36,749 nt of DNA from a virus, in the IMG/VR virus record IMGVR_UViG_3300009678_001574; one strand, given 5' to 3'. The number at the start of each line of letters is the position of its first letter. The stretch's first letter is position 1. The position numbers were made by a program, and so were the translations under genes. The notes below the pieces were generated by a model. The model saw nothing but the letters and a program-made list of their open reading frames with translations, made no database searches and was not told the origin of the DNA. This document shows positions 13,071 through 27,884 of the stretch, piece by piece.

Positions 13071-14633
13071 ATGAAGCGTATGACTTTGTTTTCGAAGATT
13101 CTTATCATTGCTGTAGTCCTGGGCGGCGGCTTTGGTTTGTTTAAGCTTGCCCAGACTCAGGGATGGGTAGATGCTGTTGCTCCAACTGGACAGACTGCAT
13201 CTAGTGGCACCTCTAAGAGCTTCACGTTTGCTAAGAGTGGTAGCTCTACTCTTAATCGGCCATTGAGGGTCGGTGTGGTTACGTGGGGTGGTTATGCTGG
13301 TGGCCAGTACTTTAACCGTGGTTTCAAGCCTAATCCCGAGTCTCAGTACAGACAAAAGTATGGTTTTGATGTCGAGTTCGTGTTGATGGACGACTTCGTT
13401 CCATCACGAGAGGCGTTCAAAGCTGGCAGTTTGGACTTGCTTTGGGGTACGGTTGATTCGTTCCCATCGGAAGTTGCCGCTCTTCATGCCCAAGGCGTGA
13501 AGATTTTGTTTCAGGCTGATTGGTCCCGTGGTGGTGATGCTGTTGTTGTCCGGCGCGGAATCAATTCGGTTAATGACTTGAAGGGTAAGAAGATTGCTGT
13601 TGCTTTCGGCACCCCTTCTCACACGTTTTTGTTGTGGCTGTTGAACGCTGGTGACTTGACTCAGAAGGATGTTCAGGTTATCGAAGTTCCATCGGCTATC
13701 AATGCTGGTGAATTGTTCAAGGCTCAGCGAGTTGATGCTGCGGTTGTATGGTCGCCTGATGATGAGGACTGCGTTAGTAAGGTGAATGGAGCGAAGGTTC
13801 TAAAGAGCACCAGAGACGCTGACCATATCATCGCTGACGTGTTCTACGTTAAGGAAGAGTTCCTTACTGCCCACAAGCAAGTGCTGGTTGGGTTGGTTGA
13901 GGGTTGGTTGGCTGGTGCTGCTGAAATCAATACCAATCCTCAAGCCAAGGCTACCGCCGCAAAGATTCTTGCTGAAGGTTTGAGCTTGGATGAAGGTTGG
14001 GCGTCGCGAGCTATCGGTAATGCCAGACTGGCTACTTATGGTGATAACGTGAATTTCTTCAATCTTACCAATAGCTACACTGGTGTTACTGGTGAAGACG
14101 TTTATAGCAACATGGCTAAGGCTTACAACACCGTAGGTCTGGCTCCTGAGATTGTTCCTGCTTGGCGGCAGGTGGTTAATACTAGCGTATTGAGCGCCGT
14201 GAGCTTGAGTGGTCCTGAGCATTCTGCTGAGGCTTCTGCACAGTTCACTGCACCAACTACGGCTGAGGTTGCTGCTCCAGCATTTTCAACCAAGCGGGTT
14301 TCTATCACGTTTGATAGTGGCTCCGCTACTCTGGATGATAATGCCAAGCAGATTATTGACCTTACCTTTGCTGAGATTGCTCGGTCATTTGGTCGTGCTC
14401 GTATCCGTGTTGAAGGTAATACGGATGACGTTGGACCCGATGAGTTGAACAAGGGATTGTCACAGCGTAGAGCTAAGGCGGTTGCTGAGTATCTGAGCAG
14501 CGAGTATCACTTTGACCCCAATCGTTTCGTGGTTGTGGGTAATGGTGAGTCAAAGCCAGTTGCTCCTAATACAACGCCGGCTGGTCGTGCGAAGAATCGT
14601 CGCACTGACTTTGAGCTGTTGTCGCAAGAGTAG
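13071..14633 (+). CDS. ABC substrate-binding protein (NMT1/THI5/SsuA-like) fused to an OmpA-like peptidoglycan-binding domain
   Basis: DWSRGGDAVV, DLKGKKIAV and DAAVVWSP motifs. C-terminal VEGNTD...LSQRRAKAV...GESKP...NRRTDF. Confidence 0.92.
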   Translation: MKRMTLFSKILIIAVVLGGGFGLFKLAQTQGWVDAVAPTGQTASSGTSKSFTFAKSGSSTLNRPLRVGVVTWGGYAGGQYFNRGFKPNPESQYRQKYGFDVEFVLMDDFVPSREAFKAGSLDLLWGTVDSFPSEVAALHAQGVKILFQADWSRGGDAVVVRRGINSVNDLKGKKIAVAFGTPSHTFLLWLLNAGDLTQKDVQVIEVPSAINAGELFKAQRVDAAVVWSPDDEDCVSKVNGAKVLKSTRDADHIIADVFYVKEEFLTAHKQVLVGLVEGWLAGAAEINTNPQAKATAAKILAEGLSLDEGWASRAIGNARLATYGDNVNFFNLTNSYTGVTGEDVYSNMAKAYNTVGLAPEIVPAWRQVVNTSVLSAVSLSGPEHSAEASAQFTAPTTAEVAAPAFSTKRVSITFDSGSATLDDNAKQIIDLTFAEIARSFGRARIRVEGNTDDVGPDELNKGLSQRRAKAVAEYLSSEYHFDPNRFVVVGNGESKPVAPNTTPAGRAKNRRTDFELLSQE

Positions 14634-14648
14634 TAAGTTTTTTAATCC

Positions 14649-14700
14649 ACAGGGACATGCTCTATGAGGTTCGCCGCAAGGCCATGTCCCTGTTTTCTCT
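14649..14700 (+). terminator. terminator-like or mRNA-stabilising hairpin after the SBP gene
   Basis: ACAGGGACATG(14649-14659)/CATGTCCCTGT(14683-14693) 11-bp stem followed by TTTCTCT. Confidence 0.55.
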
Positions 14701-14710
14701 CGATGTGCTA

Positions 14711-14917
14711 ATGTACGGTCCAAGATTTATAAGAATAGGCTCGTGTATGACTCCGAGCTGCAAACGACTTCCAACTATTCTTATCTATGAACCGTATGAG
14801 TGGGATGGTATGGAGCACGAAACTAATAGAAAGTTTGCGTGCGAGCCATGTGCTGATAAGTTTTTCTTTTCAAGAGGCTATGGAACAGTTAAGGAACAAG
14901 AGAAAAGAAATGTCTGA
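14711..14917 (+). CDS. small Cys-rich hypothetical protein
   Basis: CMTPSC and CEPC motifs. Start placed after the hairpin (uncertain). Confidence 0.55.
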   Translation: MYGPRFIRIGSCMTPSCKRLPTILIYEPYEWDGMEHETNRKFACEPCADKFFFSRGYGTVKEQEKRNV

Positions 14918-15239
14918 CCGCAAATTAGTTAAAGACCAGTTTGACTGTTTAAGTTGGAGTATAGAGAATCAAACTGTTGATTATGTTATCGAGCATCTTA
15001 AAAAAGAACGAGACAAGATTCTAAGTAATCCAAAGTATAAGAGCGCTGAGATTGCTTTTTATCCTGGCGATCCGTATGATAATTCCGATAAGGAATATGC
15101 TTACGTTGTCGGTATCAGAGAAGAGAACGACAAAGAATATAACGAGCGAATCGAAATAGAGCGAAAGAATAACGCTAGTAGAGAAGAATACGAAAAGAAA
15201 CAATTTGAGTTTCTTAAAAAGAAGTACGAAGGAAAATAA
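14910..15239 (+). CDS. hypothetical phage protein
   Basis: Overlaps both neighbours; charged C-terminal helix. Confidence 0.75.
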   Translation: MSDRKLVKDQFDCLSWSIENQTVDYVIEHLKKERDKILSNPKYKSAEIAFYPGDPYDNSDKEYAYVVGIREENDKEYNERIEIERKNNASREEYEKKQFEFLKKKYEGK

Positions 15240-16045
15240 TGTTAGCCGACCTTTTGAGACTACGTGGTGAGTTGAGTGCTAAACTCAGCACTACTGTTCA
15301 GCTAGTTGGTCTTGCTATTATCTTGGGCTTGTGGTCTTTGGCATCCGGGCTTGAGTTGATTCCACTTTCCCTGTTGCCTACACCTTGGAGCGTGCTATCT
15401 TCCTTTGCTGAATTGCACTTCAAGGATGCTCTGATTAGAAATATTTTCTATTCAGTTAAGATTAATCTCTTGGGCTATATGCAAGCTCTAGCAGTTGCGA
15501 TCCCTGCTGGCTTCATAGTTGGTTTGCTTCCGGTATGTAGAGAGTTGTTTCGTAAATATATCGACGCTACCAGATATCTTCCGCTTACCGCTTTGACTGG
15601 CTTGTTTATTGCCTGGTTCGGTATTGAAGATACTATGAAGGTTCAGTTTTTGGCCTTTGGTATTGTGGTTTATTTGTTGCCAGTAGTAATGCAGCGTATC
15701 AACGAAGTCGAAAAAGTTTATGTAGATACTATCTATACTTTAGGTGCTACAAAATGGCAGACCATTAAAGAGATTTTCATCCCCGCCGTGTTGTCGAAGA
15801 TTTCAGATGATGCTCGCGTGTTGGTTGCTATTAGCTGGACTTACATTATCGTTGCGGAATTGATTAACAAAAGTGCTGGTGGTATTGGCGCCCTTTGTTA
15901 TACTGCCGCCCGACAAAGCCGAATCGACAAGGTGTTTGCTCTGTTGGTTGTAATCGTACTGATTGGTTTTGTTCAAGACAAGCTAGCTGGTATACTGGAC
16001 AAGATGTTATTCCCACATAAGCACACTGGCGCTGGAGAGAAGTAA
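15239..16045 (+). CDS. ABC transporter permease (SsuC/TauC/NitT-like)
   Basis: LLPTPWSV, TLGATKWQ EAA-like loop, SWTYIIVAEL; about six TM helices. Confidence 0.93.
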   Translation: MLADLLRLRGELSAKLSTTVQLVGLAIILGLWSLASGLELIPLSLLPTPWSVLSSFAELHFKDALIRNIFYSVKINLLGYMQALAVAIPAGFIVGLLPVCRELFRKYIDATRYLPLTALTGLFIAWFGIEDTMKVQFLAFGIVVYLLPVVMQRINEVEKVYVDTIYTLGATKWQTIKEIFIPAVLSKISDDARVLVAISWTYIIVAELINKSAGGIGALCYTAARQSRIDKVFALLVVIVLIGFVQDKLAGILDKMLFPHKHTGAGEK

Positions 16046-16827
16046 TGTCTGTAATTGAACTGAAAAATATCTCTCAAGTGTATGACGGCACCAATGTTGT
16101 GTTGAAGGACTTAAACTTAACCATCGAAGATAAACCTAACAAGGGACAGTTCATTGCTCTATTAGGGCCGAGCGGTTGTGGTAAGTCAACTCTACTTAGG
16201 TATATTTCTGGGCTACAGAAGCCGACTACTGGCGAAGTTAATCTGTTTGGAAAGCCTCGTACTGAGGATGACCGAGTAGGTATGGTTTTCCAAAAGTATT
16301 CTTCTTTGCCTTGGCTATCAGTCTTGGATAACATTTCTTTAGGACTCAAGCTACAAGGAGTGAGTAAGGCTGACCGTACTACAAAGGCTAAAGAAATCCT
16401 AGAGGTTGTTGGGCTCAAGGGTCATGGCAGCAAATATGCACAATACCCTACGCTATCAGGTGGCCAATTACAGCGTGTGGCCATTGCTCGTAGTCTGTTA
16501 GCAAATCCTCGTATTCTGATGATGGATGAGCCCTTTGGTGCTCTGGACGTTAAGACTAGACTTAAGATGCAGGATAGTCTTCAAGAGATTTATTTGAGCC
16601 TTAATAATCAGGGCAATAATCCTACCATTTTATTGGTGACTCATGATATTCAGGAGGCTGTATATTTAGCTGACGATATCTTTATCTTAGGTAAAGCGCC
16701 AGCTAAGGTTGAGCATCATATAAAGGTTGCGCTACCAGAGAAGCGCGATAGAAGCATTAAACGAGAAAACTTCTTTAGAGAAATCGTAGCCCAAGTAGAA
16801 GATATAATGATGGGCATTGGTGATTAA
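16045..16827 (+). CDS. ABC transporter ATPase (SsuB/TauB/NitT-like)
   Basis: Walker A GPSGCGKS, LSGGQ signature, MMDEPFGALD, VTHD. Confidence 0.97.
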   Translation: MSVIELKNISQVYDGTNVVLKDLNLTIEDKPNKGQFIALLGPSGCGKSTLLRYISGLQKPTTGEVNLFGKPRTEDDRVGMVFQKYSSLPWLSVLDNISLGLKLQGVSKADRTTKAKEILEVVGLKGHGSKYAQYPTLSGGQLQRVAIARSLLANPRILMMDEPFGALDVKTRLKMQDSLQEIYLSLNNQGNNPTILLVTHDIQEAVYLADDIFILGKAPAKVEHHIKVALPEKRDRSIKRENFFREIVAQVEDIMMGIGD

Positions 16828-18847: not shown

Positions 18848-18937
18848 GCCGGAGTGGCGGAATCGGTAGACGCGCTGGGCTTAGGACCCAGTGGGGTTAA
18901 TCGCCCCGTGTAGGTTCGATGCCTATCTTCGGCACCA
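18848..18937 (+). tRNA. tRNA-Leu(TAG)
   Basis: GCCGGAG/CTTCGGC acceptor stem, CTGGG-CTTAGGA-CCCAG anticodon arm, long variable arm, CCA. Confidence 0.96.
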
Positions 18938-18993
18938 AAATCGAAAATAATATATATGTAAATTATAACAATCTCTTAAGGAGAATTAAGAAA

Positions 18994-20292
18994 ATGAGAA
19001 TCGTTTTATTGTGTACAATCGCATTTATGGCAGCATGTGCCGGTGATGATCCGTCAGGAAGTGGCGGAGAGGACCTTACTGGTCCACAAGGTGAAGTTGG
19101 ACCACAAGGCCCACAGGGTGAAGTTGGTCCGCAAGGTAATATCGGATCGTCTGGACAAGATGGCGTTAATGGTATAGATGGTGCCCAGGGACTTCAGGGT
19201 GATATGGGACCACAGGGCTTACCTGGCGCTCAAGGACTTCAGGGTCCTCCTGGTGCTCCGGGTCTTGATGGTGCTCCTGGTATGCCAGGCGCTCCTGGTG
19301 CCAATGGCACCAATGGTGCTCCAGGCCAAGATGGTGTAGCTGGACCCCCCGGTGCTGATGGGCTTCCTGGCCTCGATGGTGAACAAGGACCGCAAGGTGA
19401 ACCTGGTGCTAATGGACATGATGGCGTTGCCGGTCCGCCTGGGGCCGAAGGCCCTCCGGGTCTTGATGGTGCTCAAGGCCCACAAGGTGAGCCTGGTGAA
19501 AACGGACACGATGGCGTAGCTGGCCCGCCTGGTGCTGATGGACCTCCCGGTCTTGACGGTGCTCCTGGCTTGGATGGTCTTGACGGACCTCCGGGACTTG
19601 ACGGTGTTAATGGTCAAGATGGGGCTCCTGGGTTGAATGGTTCTCACGGTTTTAGTTGTTGGGATGACAATGAAAGTCTTGAATGTGATTTGACCGAAGA
19701 AGATGCCAATCTTGATGGTGTTTGCAATGTTCATGACTGTAAGGGCGAACGTGGTGAACAGGGTCTTGCTGGTGCTCCGGGACAGAACGGACAACAGGGT
19801 CCACAAGGCGAGCACGGTAACGATGGTGCTCAAGGACCACAAGGCAACCAAGGTCCACAGGGTCCGCAAGGTGCTCCCGGTGCACAGGGCTTGCAAGGTC
19901 TACAGGGTGCTCCTGGCATCCAAGGCCCGGCAGGTACTTATGGCCAAGGTCGTGGTATCAAGATTATCAGCGGTGTATTAAGCGCTGACTTTGATGCACC
20001 TACTCCTCAAGATGCGGTTGCTTCACTAGATGATGTGAATGGTGTTGAAGAGCGAGTTTCAGTTATTGAATCTGCAACTCCTACCACCGTAACTGTTACA
20101 GTAACCAGTTCTACAACTGGAACTGCAACTTGTCCAGCCGGCGCTATTGCTACTGGCGGTGGATATAGCGGTGTTACAAGTGGATCTACCAGAGCTACTC
20201 GTAGTGCTCCAGGTGGTTCAAACAGTTGGACTGTGGATGTTAGCGCCTCGGCTACATTCAATGTCCATGTTGTTTGCTTGAGCCTGCACTAG
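18994..20292 (+). CDS. collagen-like lipoprotein
   Basis: AAGGAG RBS, MAAC lipobox, two Gly-X-Y tracts separated by a CWD...CD...D.N.DG.C...DC.G insert, C-terminal CPAG...GGG domain. Confidence 0.92.
19327..19560 (+). repeat. about 2.6 copies of a 90-nt (30-aa) unit inside the collagen gene
   Basis: [29 protein letters not shown] repeated, with synonymous divergence between copies. Confidence 0.8.
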
Positions 20293-22131: not shown

Positions 22132-22320
22132 ATGACTGAGCGAGAAATGTTTGAGAAGTCTTTTCAGCGTCCTAGAAATTATTTTCAACTGCCTGGTGAG
22201 GCACAGTGGGATATTGACAAGCAATTAGGCATTCTAGATTGGCAGGGCGAGGGCATGACTCAAGAAGACCATGACCGTTTCAAGGCTCATTACGAATTGA
22301 AGGAAGAAGATGCTTCTTGA
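22132..22320 (+). CDS. small hypothetical phage protein
   Basis: AGGTGG RBS; 62 aa. Confidence 0.75.
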   Translation: MTEREMFEKSFQRPRNYFQLPGEAQWDIDKQLGILDWQGEGMTQEDHDRFKAHYELKEEDAS

Positions 22321-23152
22321 AGGAGCCATAGGTGATGCATACGGTATGGGCTTCGAGTATGCTAACGAAAATATCCAGTATAACAACCTCAGTAGCTATG
22401 TGAAGCACCCACAACATGGTTTGTATCCAGGCCAATATACTGACGACTCGCAGATGAGTATCGCTTTGGCCGAATTAATGTTGTCTGGTTTAGATTGGAC
22501 TCCTATCAACATCGCTAATAAGTTCGTAGAATGTTTTAAGCGTGATTGGCGCGATGGTTACTCTAGGTTATTTCAAGTCTTTCTTGAGCGAATTGAATCC
22601 GGTGAGCAGTTTTTGGCAGAGATTAAGCCCGACTCAGATAAGAGTGGCGGAGCAATGCGTGCAAGCTGTGTAGGATTGTTTAGTTTGCCAGATGAAGTGT
22701 TAGAAAAGACAACTATTCAGTGCAAGCTCACTCATAATACTCCTGATGGAATCGCTGCTGCACAAGCATCCTCACTATTGACCCACTATCTTGCCAAAGA
22801 GTTTGGTCATCCGAAAGATGCCGGCCTATACTTAAACCATTACATTGAATCGGCCCACAACTGGAACGAGGATTATGTTGGTAAGGTTAAGTCTAAAGGC
22901 TGGATGAGTGTTCGTGCCGCTATAACTGCTGTAAAACGGAACGACACATTGAGTGATCTACTGAAAGATTGCATTAATTTTACTGGCGATGTGGATACGG
23001 TAGCAACTATAGCGCTAAGTGCCGCGTCTTGTAGTAAGTATTATGTTAAGGACATACCACAAAAGTTGTACGATACTCTCGAAAACGGTAAGTATGGAAA
23101 GGACTACTTGGCAAAACTGGATGAACAGTTAAGGGTCAAGTTTTTAATATGA
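22310..23152 (+). CDS. ADP-ribosylglycohydrolase (ARH/DraG family)
   Basis: GAIGDAYG, YTDDSQMS, GGAMR, THN and GDVDTVA motifs. Confidence 0.93.
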   Translation: MLLEGAIGDAYGMGFEYANENIQYNNLSSYVKHPQHGLYPGQYTDDSQMSIALAELMLSGLDWTPINIANKFVECFKRDWRDGYSRLFQVFLERIESGEQFLAEIKPDSDKSGGAMRASCVGLFSLPDEVLEKTTIQCKLTHNTPDGIAAAQASSLLTHYLAKEFGHPKDAGLYLNHYIESAHNWNEDYVGKVKSKGWMSVRAAITAVKRNDTLSDLLKDCINFTGDVDTVATIALSAASCSKYYVKDIPQKLYDTLENGKYGKDYLAKLDEQLRVKFLI

Positions 23153-26524: not shown

Positions 26525-27154
26525 ATGTTTAAGCTAACTCACGCACTACCTGATAAATATTATGTAGCATGTTCTGGTGGCGTAGATAGTATGGCTGTTT
26601 TGCATTGGTCATCTGTTAAGCCCGACAGAGTTATTGCTGCTGTATATATTCATCACGGTACTGGTGAGTTTGCCGACAAAAGCGAACAAGTCGTAAGGGA
26701 ATATTGCGTAAAAAACAATATTCCCCTTTTAACTTATCGCGTAGAAGGCTCATGCCCAGAAGGTAGGTCTAAGGAAGATTGGTGGAGAGAACAAAGATAT
26801 GCTCTTTTCCAAAAAGTTCCTGGTACCGAACCTATTGTACTTGCTCATCATCTTGACGATTGTATTGAAGAGTATCTGATGTGCTCTTTGGTAAGAGGGT
26901 ATGAGGGTACTATCGCATACAGCAATGGCAGATGCGAAAGACCGTTTAGAAAGTGGAGCAAGGGTGATATTATTGACTATGCTATTAGGCATAGTCTGAC
27001 TTGGATTGAAGACCCGAGTAATAATAATACAAACTTTAAGCGCAATTTCATTAGACACGAAATCGTTCCACGAGCCTTACAGCTAAATCCTGGCCTGGAT
27101 AAATTGGTAAAGCGGGCAATTGATAGGATTGATTTAAATGCTTTTGAAGTTTAG
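26525..27154 (+). CDS. tilS: tRNA(Ile)-lysidine synthetase, minimal form (PP-loop domain only)
   Basis: ACSGGVDSM, RY, AHHLDD, RP, WIEDPSN and RNFIRH motifs. Confidence 0.93.
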   Translation: MFKLTHALPDKYYVACSGGVDSMAVLHWSSVKPDRVIAAVYIHHGTGEFADKSEQVVREYCVKNNIPLLTYRVEGSCPEGRSKEDWWREQRYALFQKVPGTEPIVLAHHLDDCIEEYLMCSLVRGYEGTIAYSNGRCERPFRKWSKGDIIDYAIRHSLTWIEDPSNNNTNFKRNFIRHEIVPRALQLNPGLDKLVKRAIDRIDLNAFEV

Positions 27155-27227
27155 AATAAATCTGCACCTGCTATTGTGTACGATATGCAGACGAGAATAT
27201 TGTGAAGTTTTCAAGTGTAAGTTATAG
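27138..27227 (+). CDS. possible 29-aa peptide with an HxxxCxxC zinc motif
   Basis: MLLKFRINLHLLLCTICRREYCEVFKCKL*. Bridges the tilS end and RNase P helix P1. Confidence 0.4.
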   Translation: MLLKFRINLHLLLCTICRREYCEVFKCKL

Positions 27228-27349
27228 CACTGAAAGACAATCACTAGGGTGAACTCCTAGAGGAAAGTCGGGACTCCATAGAGCAGTTTAGTGGGTAACT
27301 CCCATCCCGTGCAAACGGCGGATTAGAGGAACAGAGACGAGCCTTTCTA

Positions 27350-27550
27350 ATGAACATTGGTGATAGAGTAAAAATTGTTGGCGATTTAGCAGCAATAGAT
27401 CATCGAAGTAATCGCTACGGTATTATTACAAAGATAGATGGAGCATATCATTATGTCCGTCCTATGTGGTGTAAGTGGACCGCAGAGTTTTATGAGTGGG
27501 AATTAGAAGGGGTGAAACGGCCAATCTCTAAACGGAGCAACATCAAATAG
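27350..27550 (+). CDS. 66-aa SH3/KOW-like protein encoded inside RNase P RNA (P12 insertion)
   Basis: MNIGDRVKIVG...GIITKIDG...YEWELE pattern. ATG sits at the tip of the P12 5' arm. Confidence 0.7.
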   Translation: MNIGDRVKIVGDLAAIDHRSNRYGIITKIDGAYHYVRPMWCKWTAEFYEWELEGVKRPISKRSNIK

Positions 27551-27556
27551 GTCAAT

Positions 27557-27724
27557 ATGAAAAAGAAGATTGATTTGAAACTCAAAATAGAGCAACAACC
27601 TGATGGTAGTTGTATCGTTCATTTCGACAAGGAAGCGTTGTTAAAAGCATCGTTATCCGATCTATTATATGATGTTCAACAGGCTTTGATTTCAGACTCC
27701 TGCTCGGAGAATATTGACGGGTAG
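27557..27724 (+). CDS. 55-aa protein encoded inside RNase P RNA (P16/P17 insertion)
   Basis: MKKKIDLKLKIEQQPDGSCIVHFDKEALLKASLSDLLYDVQQALISDSCSENIDG*. TAGGT SD-like motif upstream. Confidence 0.6.
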   Translation: MKKKIDLKLKIEQQPDGSCIVHFDKEALLKASLSDLLYDVQQALISDSCSENIDG

Positions 27725-27807
27725 ATGGCTTGAGTGTTAAGGTAACTTAACACCTAGAGGAATGATTGTCATAACAGAATCCCGCTTATTGATGTGCTAT
27801 TCAATAC

Positions 27808-27884
27808 GGGCCTATAGCTCAATTGGTTAGAGCGGGCCGCTCATAACGGCTAGGTTCTAGGTTCGAGTCCTAGTAGGCCCACCA
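27808..27884 (+). tRNA. tRNA-Ile2(CAT), lysidine-type
   Basis: GGGCCTA/TAGGCCC acceptor stem with C4:G69 and C5:G68 TilS determinants, loop CTCATAA, no initiator features, next to tilS. Confidence 0.9.

Follow-up and report, generated by a model that had tools for sequence, protein, structure and literature searches.

Inspection of a 36,749-nucleotide (nt) stretch of DNA from the IMG/VR virus record IMGVR_UViG_3300009678_001574 (hereafter the window), which is part of a metagenome contig of 468,446 base pairs (bp), indicates that it contains a gene for a type-A RNase P RNA in which two small protein genes, open reading frames (ORFs) 1 and 2, are nested. Based on comparative sequence analysis, we consider it likely that this gene, located at 27224-27804 on the plus strand, encodes a virus-borne, host-derived and working ribozyme that is also the carrier, and probably the messenger RNA (mRNA), of two small genes placed at peripheral and dispensable sites of the RNA: the tip of helix P12 and the junction between helices P16 and P17. 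RNase P RNA counts as the prototype of a catalytic RNA that does not code for protein, and at this locus selection appears to keep both the fold and the protein genes inside it. Thus, a trans-acting housekeeping ribozyme would be able to double as a gene carrier, and probably as a messenger, a combination previously associated only with self-splicing introns. The locus may therefore serve as a natural system for studying how translation is reconciled with RNA folding on one molecule, and it is informative about the extra RNA that the P12 tip and the P16/P17 junction tolerate, as well as about the shuffling of small genes into structured RNAs of huge phages. It also has a practical side, in that gene callers and RNA annotators would each miss half of such loci.

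The identity of the ribozyme is supported by its match to a covariance model and by its architecture. A previous sequence-only reading of this DNA, made without database searches, had traced an RNase P core interrupted by two insertions, and an Infernal search bears this out: using Rfam cmscan, the segment 27224-27804 was aligned with the full length of model RF00010 (RNaseP_bact_a; model positions 1-367 of 367) with a score of 164.1 bits, which is above the gathering score of 100, and an E-value of 2.5e-51. The Rfam alignment contains the intact core helices, including P4 with its bulged U and the P6 pseudoknot, and both insertions, and the helix, insertion and ORF coordinates given in that reading all agree with the sequence. 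Insertion 1 (150 nt, 27352-27501) is the loop of P12, and insertion 2 (138 nt, 27559-27696) lies between P16 and P17; with both included, the RNA is 581 nt long. The 5' strand of P4 with its bulged U, in conserved region CR-I (27260-27277), matches the Rfam consensus and has its partner in CR-V (27774-27788), and the 5' strand of the P6 pseudoknot (27281-27285) pairs with 27701-27705, which forms the loop of the P17 hairpin (27697-27709; arms 27697-27700 and 27706-27709). Insertion 1 is closed by the arms of the P12 stem (27342-27351 and 27502-27511), which are paired in minimum-free-energy folds; P16 is made up of arms at 27551-27558 and 27711-27718; the GGU of L15, which binds the 3'-CCA end of tRNA, is at 27720-27722; and P18 is a hairpin with a GNRA-type loop at 27734-27753. 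The minimum-free-energy fold of the 581-nt RNA retains P1, P3, P8, P9, the P12 stem, P16, P17 and P18. The J11/12 and J12/13 modules of the specificity domain, which flank P12, align to the consensus and are invariant within the clade. P13 and P14 are absent, 43 model positions being aligned to no bases at all, but this loss is a lineage variation that leaves the type-A membership unaffected. Six related loci matched the same model with 125-170 bits. Thus, by every sequence and structure criterion tested, the RNA is a type-A RNase P RNA.

Comparison with relatives provides evidence that the core of this RNA has been maintained. When six full-length members of the clade were compared after trimming the inserts, 88 of the 107 unpaired core columns (82%) turned out to be invariant, compared with only 8 of 45 third-codon positions of ORF2 (18%) in the same sequences. 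Compensatory double changes affect all eight pairs of P18, nine of the 11 pairs of the P12 stem and all four pairs of P9, and they are also found in P8, P15 and P16 (two pairs in the last). In P4, all ten pairs are kept in the six sequences, nine of them invariant, and the bulged U remains unpaired. In addition, relative L008 has U-A in place of one C-G pair of the P6 pseudoknot, the two strands of which lie on either side of the 138-nt insertion. Judging from these substitution patterns, the core helices, the long-range pairings P4 and P6 and the conserved single-stranded modules are held by selection.

The gene between P16 and P17, ORF2 (27557-27724, plus strand), has a length of 55 codons. 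Its ATG starts with the last two bases of the P16 5' arm, insertion 2 carries its domain, which is predicted to consist of a beta-hairpin and two helices (residues 10-46), and its last residues (47-55) form a disordered tail encoded by sequence that overlaps P17, P6, P16 and L15, such that the stop codon TAG (27722-27724) overlaps the GGU of L15. The AlphaFold2 (AF2) model has moderate confidence, with a predicted local distance difference test (pLDDT) score of 72, the last nine residues being disordered. The second insertion and an intact ORF2 are present in all seven distinct sequences (the window, L002, L003, L004, L005, L008 and L113), and the insertion is absent from the bacterial relatives. 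Several features of these sequences argue that ORF2 evolves in the manner of a protein-coding sequence. Over the 45 codons located entirely inside the insertion, the variable columns at codon positions 1, 2 and 3 number 19, 6 and 37, respectively (chi-square p = 8e-6); the only length variation among the seven sequences is one in-frame indel of 3 nt, i.e. a whole codon; and the remaining two frames contain between two and eight stop codons in every sequence. Pairwise ratios of nonsynonymous to synonymous substitution rates (dN/dS) are 0.04-0.37, with dS saturated in the most distant pairs, which points to purifying selection and is in line with the coding role that had been proposed from the letters alone. 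The sequence AGGT, located upstream of ORF2 with a spacing of 4, is a typical ribosome-binding site among the genes of this window. The flanking genes vary among the more distant ORF2 carriers, and ORF2 therefore appears to have stayed with the RNA through considerable genome change. Taken as comparative evidence, these results indicate that ORF2 is a real gene.

Searches of Pfam (E<=1), PHROGs, PADLOC, NCBIfam, the ESM Atlas and Foldseek/PDB returned nothing usable about the function of ORF2. No free-standing relatives were found either: a profile search of 5.8 billion proteins yielded only five clusters, all of them embedded in RNase P RNA, and there were no relatives in IMG/VR. Inside ORF2, the seven sequences all agree in nine consecutive bases (27605-27613, codons 17-19), three third-codon positions among them, although synonymous sites are saturated elsewhere; this run sits in a predicted hairpin (alignment columns 45-66) and may reflect an extra constraint at the level of the RNA. 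Insertion 2 was also considered as a structured extension of P16/P17, and this was rejected as the main explanation, because covariation contributes only -1.54 kcal/mol and substitutions show the three-base periodicity of coding sequence.

ORF1 (27350-27550, plus strand) encodes 66 amino acids, and the first two bases of its ATG belong to the 5' arm of the P12 stem. Residues 1-54 are predicted to form a small barrel of the SH3/KOW-like type, encoded by insertion 1, and the remaining 12 residues are read from the ribozyme core, up to a stop codon (TAG, 27548-27550) that precedes the ATG of ORF2 by 6 nt. Among 1.84 billion representative proteins, an exhaustive search with HMMER identified 58 homologues at E<=1e-3. 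Most are free-standing small proteins, of the kind that the sequence-only reading had suggested looking for, and most have 55-90 residues; the top relatives are 47-55% identical to ORF1 (best 54%, E = 2e-11). All of them align to residues 1 to about 54, which is exactly the part encoded by the insertion, and the family ends a few residues later, so that the last 12 residues of ORF1 have no counterpart in it. The nearly invariant family residues (G4, G24, G31, V36, P38, Y48 and E51) are all present in ORF1. Both relatives whose surroundings we examined belong, as ordinary genes, to compact phage-like operons, beside genes for DNA ligase, ThyX and dNMP kinase. Using the family alignment, AF2 modelled ORF1 as a five-stranded small barrel (strands 6-9, 23-30, 33-38, 45-48 and 52-54) with a pLDDT of 87 overall, about 94 for the domain and 57 for the tail. 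Foldseek matched this model to NdhS, YorP and the KOW domain of Spt5 with template modelling (TM) scores of 0.6-0.7; these matches are weak (E of about 1e-2), and together with the modelled barrel they support the SH3/KOW-like assignment made earlier by eye. No match was found in Pfam (E<=1). Its homologues and conserved residues identify ORF1 as a genuine gene that belongs to a phage family of small proteins.

The P12 region is of very different size and content among the relatives. It has 56 nt in L113 and 96 nt in L002, in both cases without an ORF, the latter being structured and having a G+C content of 50%. In the window it has 171 nt and contains ORF1; in L008 it has 170 nt and an ORF of 56-67 codons with a helix-turn-helix motif (weak match to HTH_3, E = 0.007); in L003 it has 206 nt and an unrelated ORF of 78 codons; and in L005 it has 220 nt and an ORF of 69 codons whose start resembles a signal peptide with a lipobox. 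The latter ORF (1349-1558 of L005) has a hydrophobic beginning, after which comes a lipobox-like Leu-Leu-Leu-Cys. It has no database match and may correspond to a small lipoprotein encoded in a ribozyme loop. Each of these four large inserts contains a sense ORF that spans the loop and begins 3-9 nt into the P12 region. In dinucleotide shuffles of the four independent inserts, a loop-spanning sense ORF starting in the 5' arm arose in only 0.06-1.1% per insert, and a loop-spanning ORF on the antisense strand was never seen in this test. The closing stems have 9-22 bp among the relatives (10 bp in the window), and their sequence differs while pairing is kept. The cargo ORFs of L005 and L008 end within or at the P12 3' arm, and those of the window and L003 stop 39 nt beyond P12. 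No relatives of ORF1 or of the L003, L005 and L008 cargo ORFs were detected by tblastn against 50,697 phage genomes, and an ESM Atlas look-up of the L003 ORF gave unnamed clusters only, with a chance-level score. The comparison of relatives thus shows the P12 tip to be a site of exchange, occupied by different genes in some relatives and by none in others. The sequence-only reading had pointed to variable ORF cargo at the same two sites as something to look for; such variation is found at P12, but the P16/P17 site keeps the same ORF2 in all seven sequences.

As had been described, both ORFs begin in the 5' arm of a helix and run on through conserved structure. It should be noted that the parts of both ORFs that overlap the core encode only C-terminal tails, which are disordered in the models. 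Where the two codes meet, covariation in P16 shifts the tail of ORF2 from N-I-D to D-T-D and to D-A-D, and the compensatory change in P6 of L008 turns Cys49 of ORF2 into Asp. In these overlaps the pairing of the RNA is preserved and the protein tail yields; as far as can be judged from these sequences, it is the RNA that dictates the sequence.

How might one molecule serve as ribozyme and mRNA? Since each start codon is part of a 5' helix arm, that of P12 for ORF1 and that of P16 for ORF2, translation probably precedes folding. We envisage that the RNA would be co-transcribed with the upstream tilS-like gene and the downstream tRNA(CAU) gene, both described below, and that cleavage by RNase P at the 5' end of the tRNA would trim the 3' side of the RNase P RNA. 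Ribosomes would load on the nascent transcript before the 3' arms, about 150 nt downstream, exist; the RNA would then fold into the ribozyme, hiding both start sites, so that translation and catalysis would be separated in time or between molecules. The ribozyme might act together with the RnpA protein of the host, maturing the many tRNAs of the element. The Infernal match, the selection on ORF2, the homologues of ORF1 and the covariation in the core support the proposal, already made in the sequence-only reading, that the RNA has a dual function.

Several observations weigh against this dual function, or against the viral setting in which we place it. ORF1 is represented by a single sequence, present on three contigs, and it has no recognisable Shine-Dalgarno motif. 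Furthermore, a protein database, where only intact ORFs are to be found, supplied five of the seven ORF2 sequences, and just L113 and L003/L035 were found independently by a DNA pattern; the ORF2 sample is therefore biased towards intactness, a bias that leaves the codon-position periodicity and dN/dS unaffected. Finally, the window contains no phage structural genes, so that its assignment to a phage depends on the other features given below. The lone sequence of ORF1 and its missing Shine-Dalgarno motif would fit a situation in which the RNA is a ribozyme and one or both ORFs are recently inserted, untranslated DNA whose starts are buried in P12 and P16. Both start codons are indeed base-paired in the folded RNA, and a study on Coxiella (PMC4990558) indicates that the ORF of an intervening sequence in that organism is apparently not made in vivo. 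We nevertheless regard such silent passengers as improbable: the codon-position pattern, the low dN/dS and the in-frame indel of ORF2 require selection at the protein level across lineages saturated in dS, ORF1 combines all the nearly invariant residues of its family with a confidently predicted fold, and about one third of the ordinary genes in the window also lack a clear Shine-Dalgarno motif. Very improbable, in our view, is the converse, in which the RNA would be what is left of a host gene, captured and now in decay, with only the two small protein genes still functioning in the region. It is true that the host has its own RNase P, so that a viral copy is not essential, that the large insertions and the loss of P13/P14 can be read as decay, and that the score of 164 bits is below the 204-268 bits of insert-less relatives. 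However, synonymous sites in these sequences are much less conserved than the core; pairing has been kept through double compensatory changes in P18, P9, P12, P16 and, across an insertion, the P6 pseudoknot; P13/P14 are also absent from the chromosomal, and presumably essential, rnpB of Usitatibacter; and where the constraints of ORF and RNA collide, it is the pairing that stays and the protein that changes.

A different possibility, also raised in the sequence-only reading, is that the loops are excised, giving a ribozyme in several pieces. In this model the P12 loop, and perhaps also insertion 2, would be cut out by a double-strand RNase of the host, such as RNase III, the pieces being held together by helices and the excised piece serving as the mRNA. 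ORF-bearing intervening sequences in rRNA helices provide a precedent (PMC4990558); the P12 insert is closed by a helix of 9-22 bp in every relative; and a loop excised from L005 or L008 could contain an entire message. For ORF2, excision is unlikely because the stop codon is located in L15, beyond the 3' arm of P16, in all seven sequences, and excision at P16 would generate a message without a stop codon and would also eliminate P17 and P6. As to the P12 loop, to which excision may still apply, the ORFs of the window and L003 stop beyond P12, and most of the P12 closing stems have only 9-14 bp, which is short for RNase III. Taken as a whole, we consider excision unlikely. It seems rather unlikely, too, that ORF2 is functionally tied to the ribozyme rather than being a mere passenger, either as a viral protein partner or as the sensor arm of a switch coupled to translation, a thought suggested by its exclusive occurrence inside RNase P RNA and its co-inheritance across saturated synonymous divergence. 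If such a switch did exist, a ribosome on ORF2 would unwind P17, P6, P16 and L15, and ribosome traffic, and with it tRNA supply, would thereby gate the enzyme that matures tRNAs. A group I or group II intron containing an ORF was also considered and rejected: no intron family reaches the threshold in the window (Rfam), and the inserts, of 138 and 150 nt, are too small and are filled by the ORFs.

We return to the dual-function RNA and compare it with other RNAs that are both structured and coding. Ribozymes that host a protein gene in a peripheral loop are known among introns, such as the group I intron in td of phage T4, which encodes I-TevI, and group II introns with an ORF in domain IV; intron ORFs can extend into core sequence, and translation must then be kept from disturbing folding. 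These introns differ from the RNA described here in that they act in cis, are mobile and carry an ORF for their own homing endonuclease or maturase, whereas the RNA in the window belongs to a trans-acting housekeeping ribozyme and its cargo proteins, as far as can be judged from the database searches, show no link with mobility. tmRNA, SgrS/SgrT and RNAIII/hld each combine, on a single transcript, a structured RNA function with the coding sequence of a peptide, but these RNAs are not catalytic and the peptides belong to the function or regulon of the RNA itself. Another comparison is with the intervening sequences of 23S rRNA that contain an S23p ORF in Coxiella, Leptospira and Salmonella, which are inserted at the tip of a conserved helix with an extended closing stem (PMC4990558). 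Insertion 1 shares these two features, but insertion 2, being located at an internal junction, does not. Besides, the rRNA intervening sequences, whose ORF is of a single family, are removed by RNase III, whereas in the RNase P RNAs the cargo varies and, in the window, two ORFs read into the core; neither ORF1 nor ORF2 matched S23p (Pfam, E<=1). Thus, a known ribozyme family is used as a gene carrier, which is otherwise documented only for introns and rRNA intervening sequences. Ribosome profiling (Ribo-seq) studies have used RNase P RNA as an untranslated control (PMC10117724, PMC10117765), and a study of the diverged RNase P RNAs of candidate-phyla bacteria describes only losses and extensions of helices. 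Full-text literature searches found no description of protein genes inside an RNase P RNA, nor of a phage-borne rnpB, in agreement with the statement in the sequence-only reading that no such arrangement was known to it.

The type of the RNA gives an indication of its origin. Public data were searched with a 19-nt probe for the junction at which the J12/13 module runs directly into the P11 3' strand, and this junction was found on more than 119 metagenome stretches. Among the junction matches listed, most are GC-rich and have a P12 region of 15-30 nt and no second insertion, and among named genomes the junction is nearly confined to assemblies of Usitatibacter, Usitatibacteraceae and other Burkholderiales. 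The chromosomal rnpB of these bacteria resembles the RNA of the window in the deletion of P13/P14, the same P4 variant, the same 19-nt J12/13-P11 junction and the GGU of L15, and the two are about 64% identical over the insert-free core. Chromosomal RNAs of the Usitatibacter type have 311-368 nt, score 204-221 bits, are GC-rich and have a P12 region of 15-68 nt, with no P16/P17 insert and no ORFs; unlike these counterparts, the RNA of the window has 581 nt, a G+C content of 41% and two genes inside. Since it is of the betaproteobacterial type, it was probably captured from such a host. One GC-rich metagenome contig (L038, around oriented position 2426) contains only the 3' two-thirds of an RNase P RNA of the P13/P14-less type; upstream of the junction the sequence looks protein-coding and lacks J11/12, a situation that could reflect truncation or rearrangement of rnpB, or a chimeric assembly.

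RNase P RNAs without inserts were found inside tRNA arrays on other IMG/VR contigs, of 10 to 279 kilobases (kb), and virus-borne rnpB thus seems to be recurrent. Like the gene in the window, these genes (L009/L012, L010/L011, L013 and L015) are located on large viral contigs and adjoin or lie within arrays of tRNA genes; they differ in being compact (278-354 nt) and non-coding, none of them having ORF2. Four of them (L009 1111-1452, L012 1571-1912, L010 351-704 and L011 649-1002) are canonical full-length type-A RNAs that have P13/P14, score 224-268 bits and are embedded in tRNA arrays on viral contigs of 75-279 kb. Two others, L013 2590-2867 (the same as L029, on a contig of 30.6 kb) and L015 2415-2698, have 278 and 284 nt, respectively, belong to the P13/P14-less type and are very compact, and they lie within large arrays of tRNA genes. 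J11/12 and J12/13 are just 5 nt apart in L013, and P12 is thus essentially missing, a state that has been called highly unusual for any organism (PMC8172020).

With respect to its surroundings in the window, the RNase P gene begins 70 nt 3' of a TilS-like gene (26525-27154, plus strand) that encodes 209 amino acids and has only the N-terminal, catalytic domain of lysidine synthetase (TIGR02432, 125 bits with a cut-off of 93.6; PF01171, E = 1.3e-34). A tRNA gene with a CAU anticodon (27808-27884, plus strand; Rfam tRNA 71.7 bits, also found by ARAGORN) begins 3 nt past the end of the RNase P match and itself encodes the CCA end (27882-27884). It is a likely candidate for tRNA-Ile2, the substrate of lysidine formation. 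The short TilS (209 residues, compared with about 430 in bacteria), the RNase P RNA and the tRNA(CAU) form a compact tRNA-maturation cluster at 26525-27884, and the occurrence of a viral RNase P RNA together with a lysidine synthetase and tRNA genes suggests that the virus encodes a module for tRNA maturation. A scan for promoters and terminators gave nothing exceeding the expectation from shuffled sequence, and DNA similarity of the region to deposited phages is confined to the tRNA. TilS relatives on IMG/VR contigs are not accompanied by rnpB, and a neighbouring gene of 364 codons has no relatives in IMG/VR.

All sizeable genes of the window are on one strand, with seven tRNA genes dispersed among them. 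The element is virus-like and probably a huge soil phage, a label that we base on its size, the one-strand gene layout, the scattered tRNAs and the occurrence of relatives on IMG/VR viral contigs. The accessory genes in the window include ABC transporter parts, a collagen-repeat protein, an ADP-ribosylglycohydrolase and a radical SAM protein. At 13071-16827, a 520-residue fusion of a substrate-binding-protein domain with an OmpA domain is encoded upstream of an ABC permease and an ABC ATPase, the three forming a transporter set on this presumed viral element. Located among the tRNA genes are those for a 457-residue protein with five stretches of collagen triple-helix repeats and for the ADP-ribosylglycohydrolase (18919-20292 and 22310-23152).

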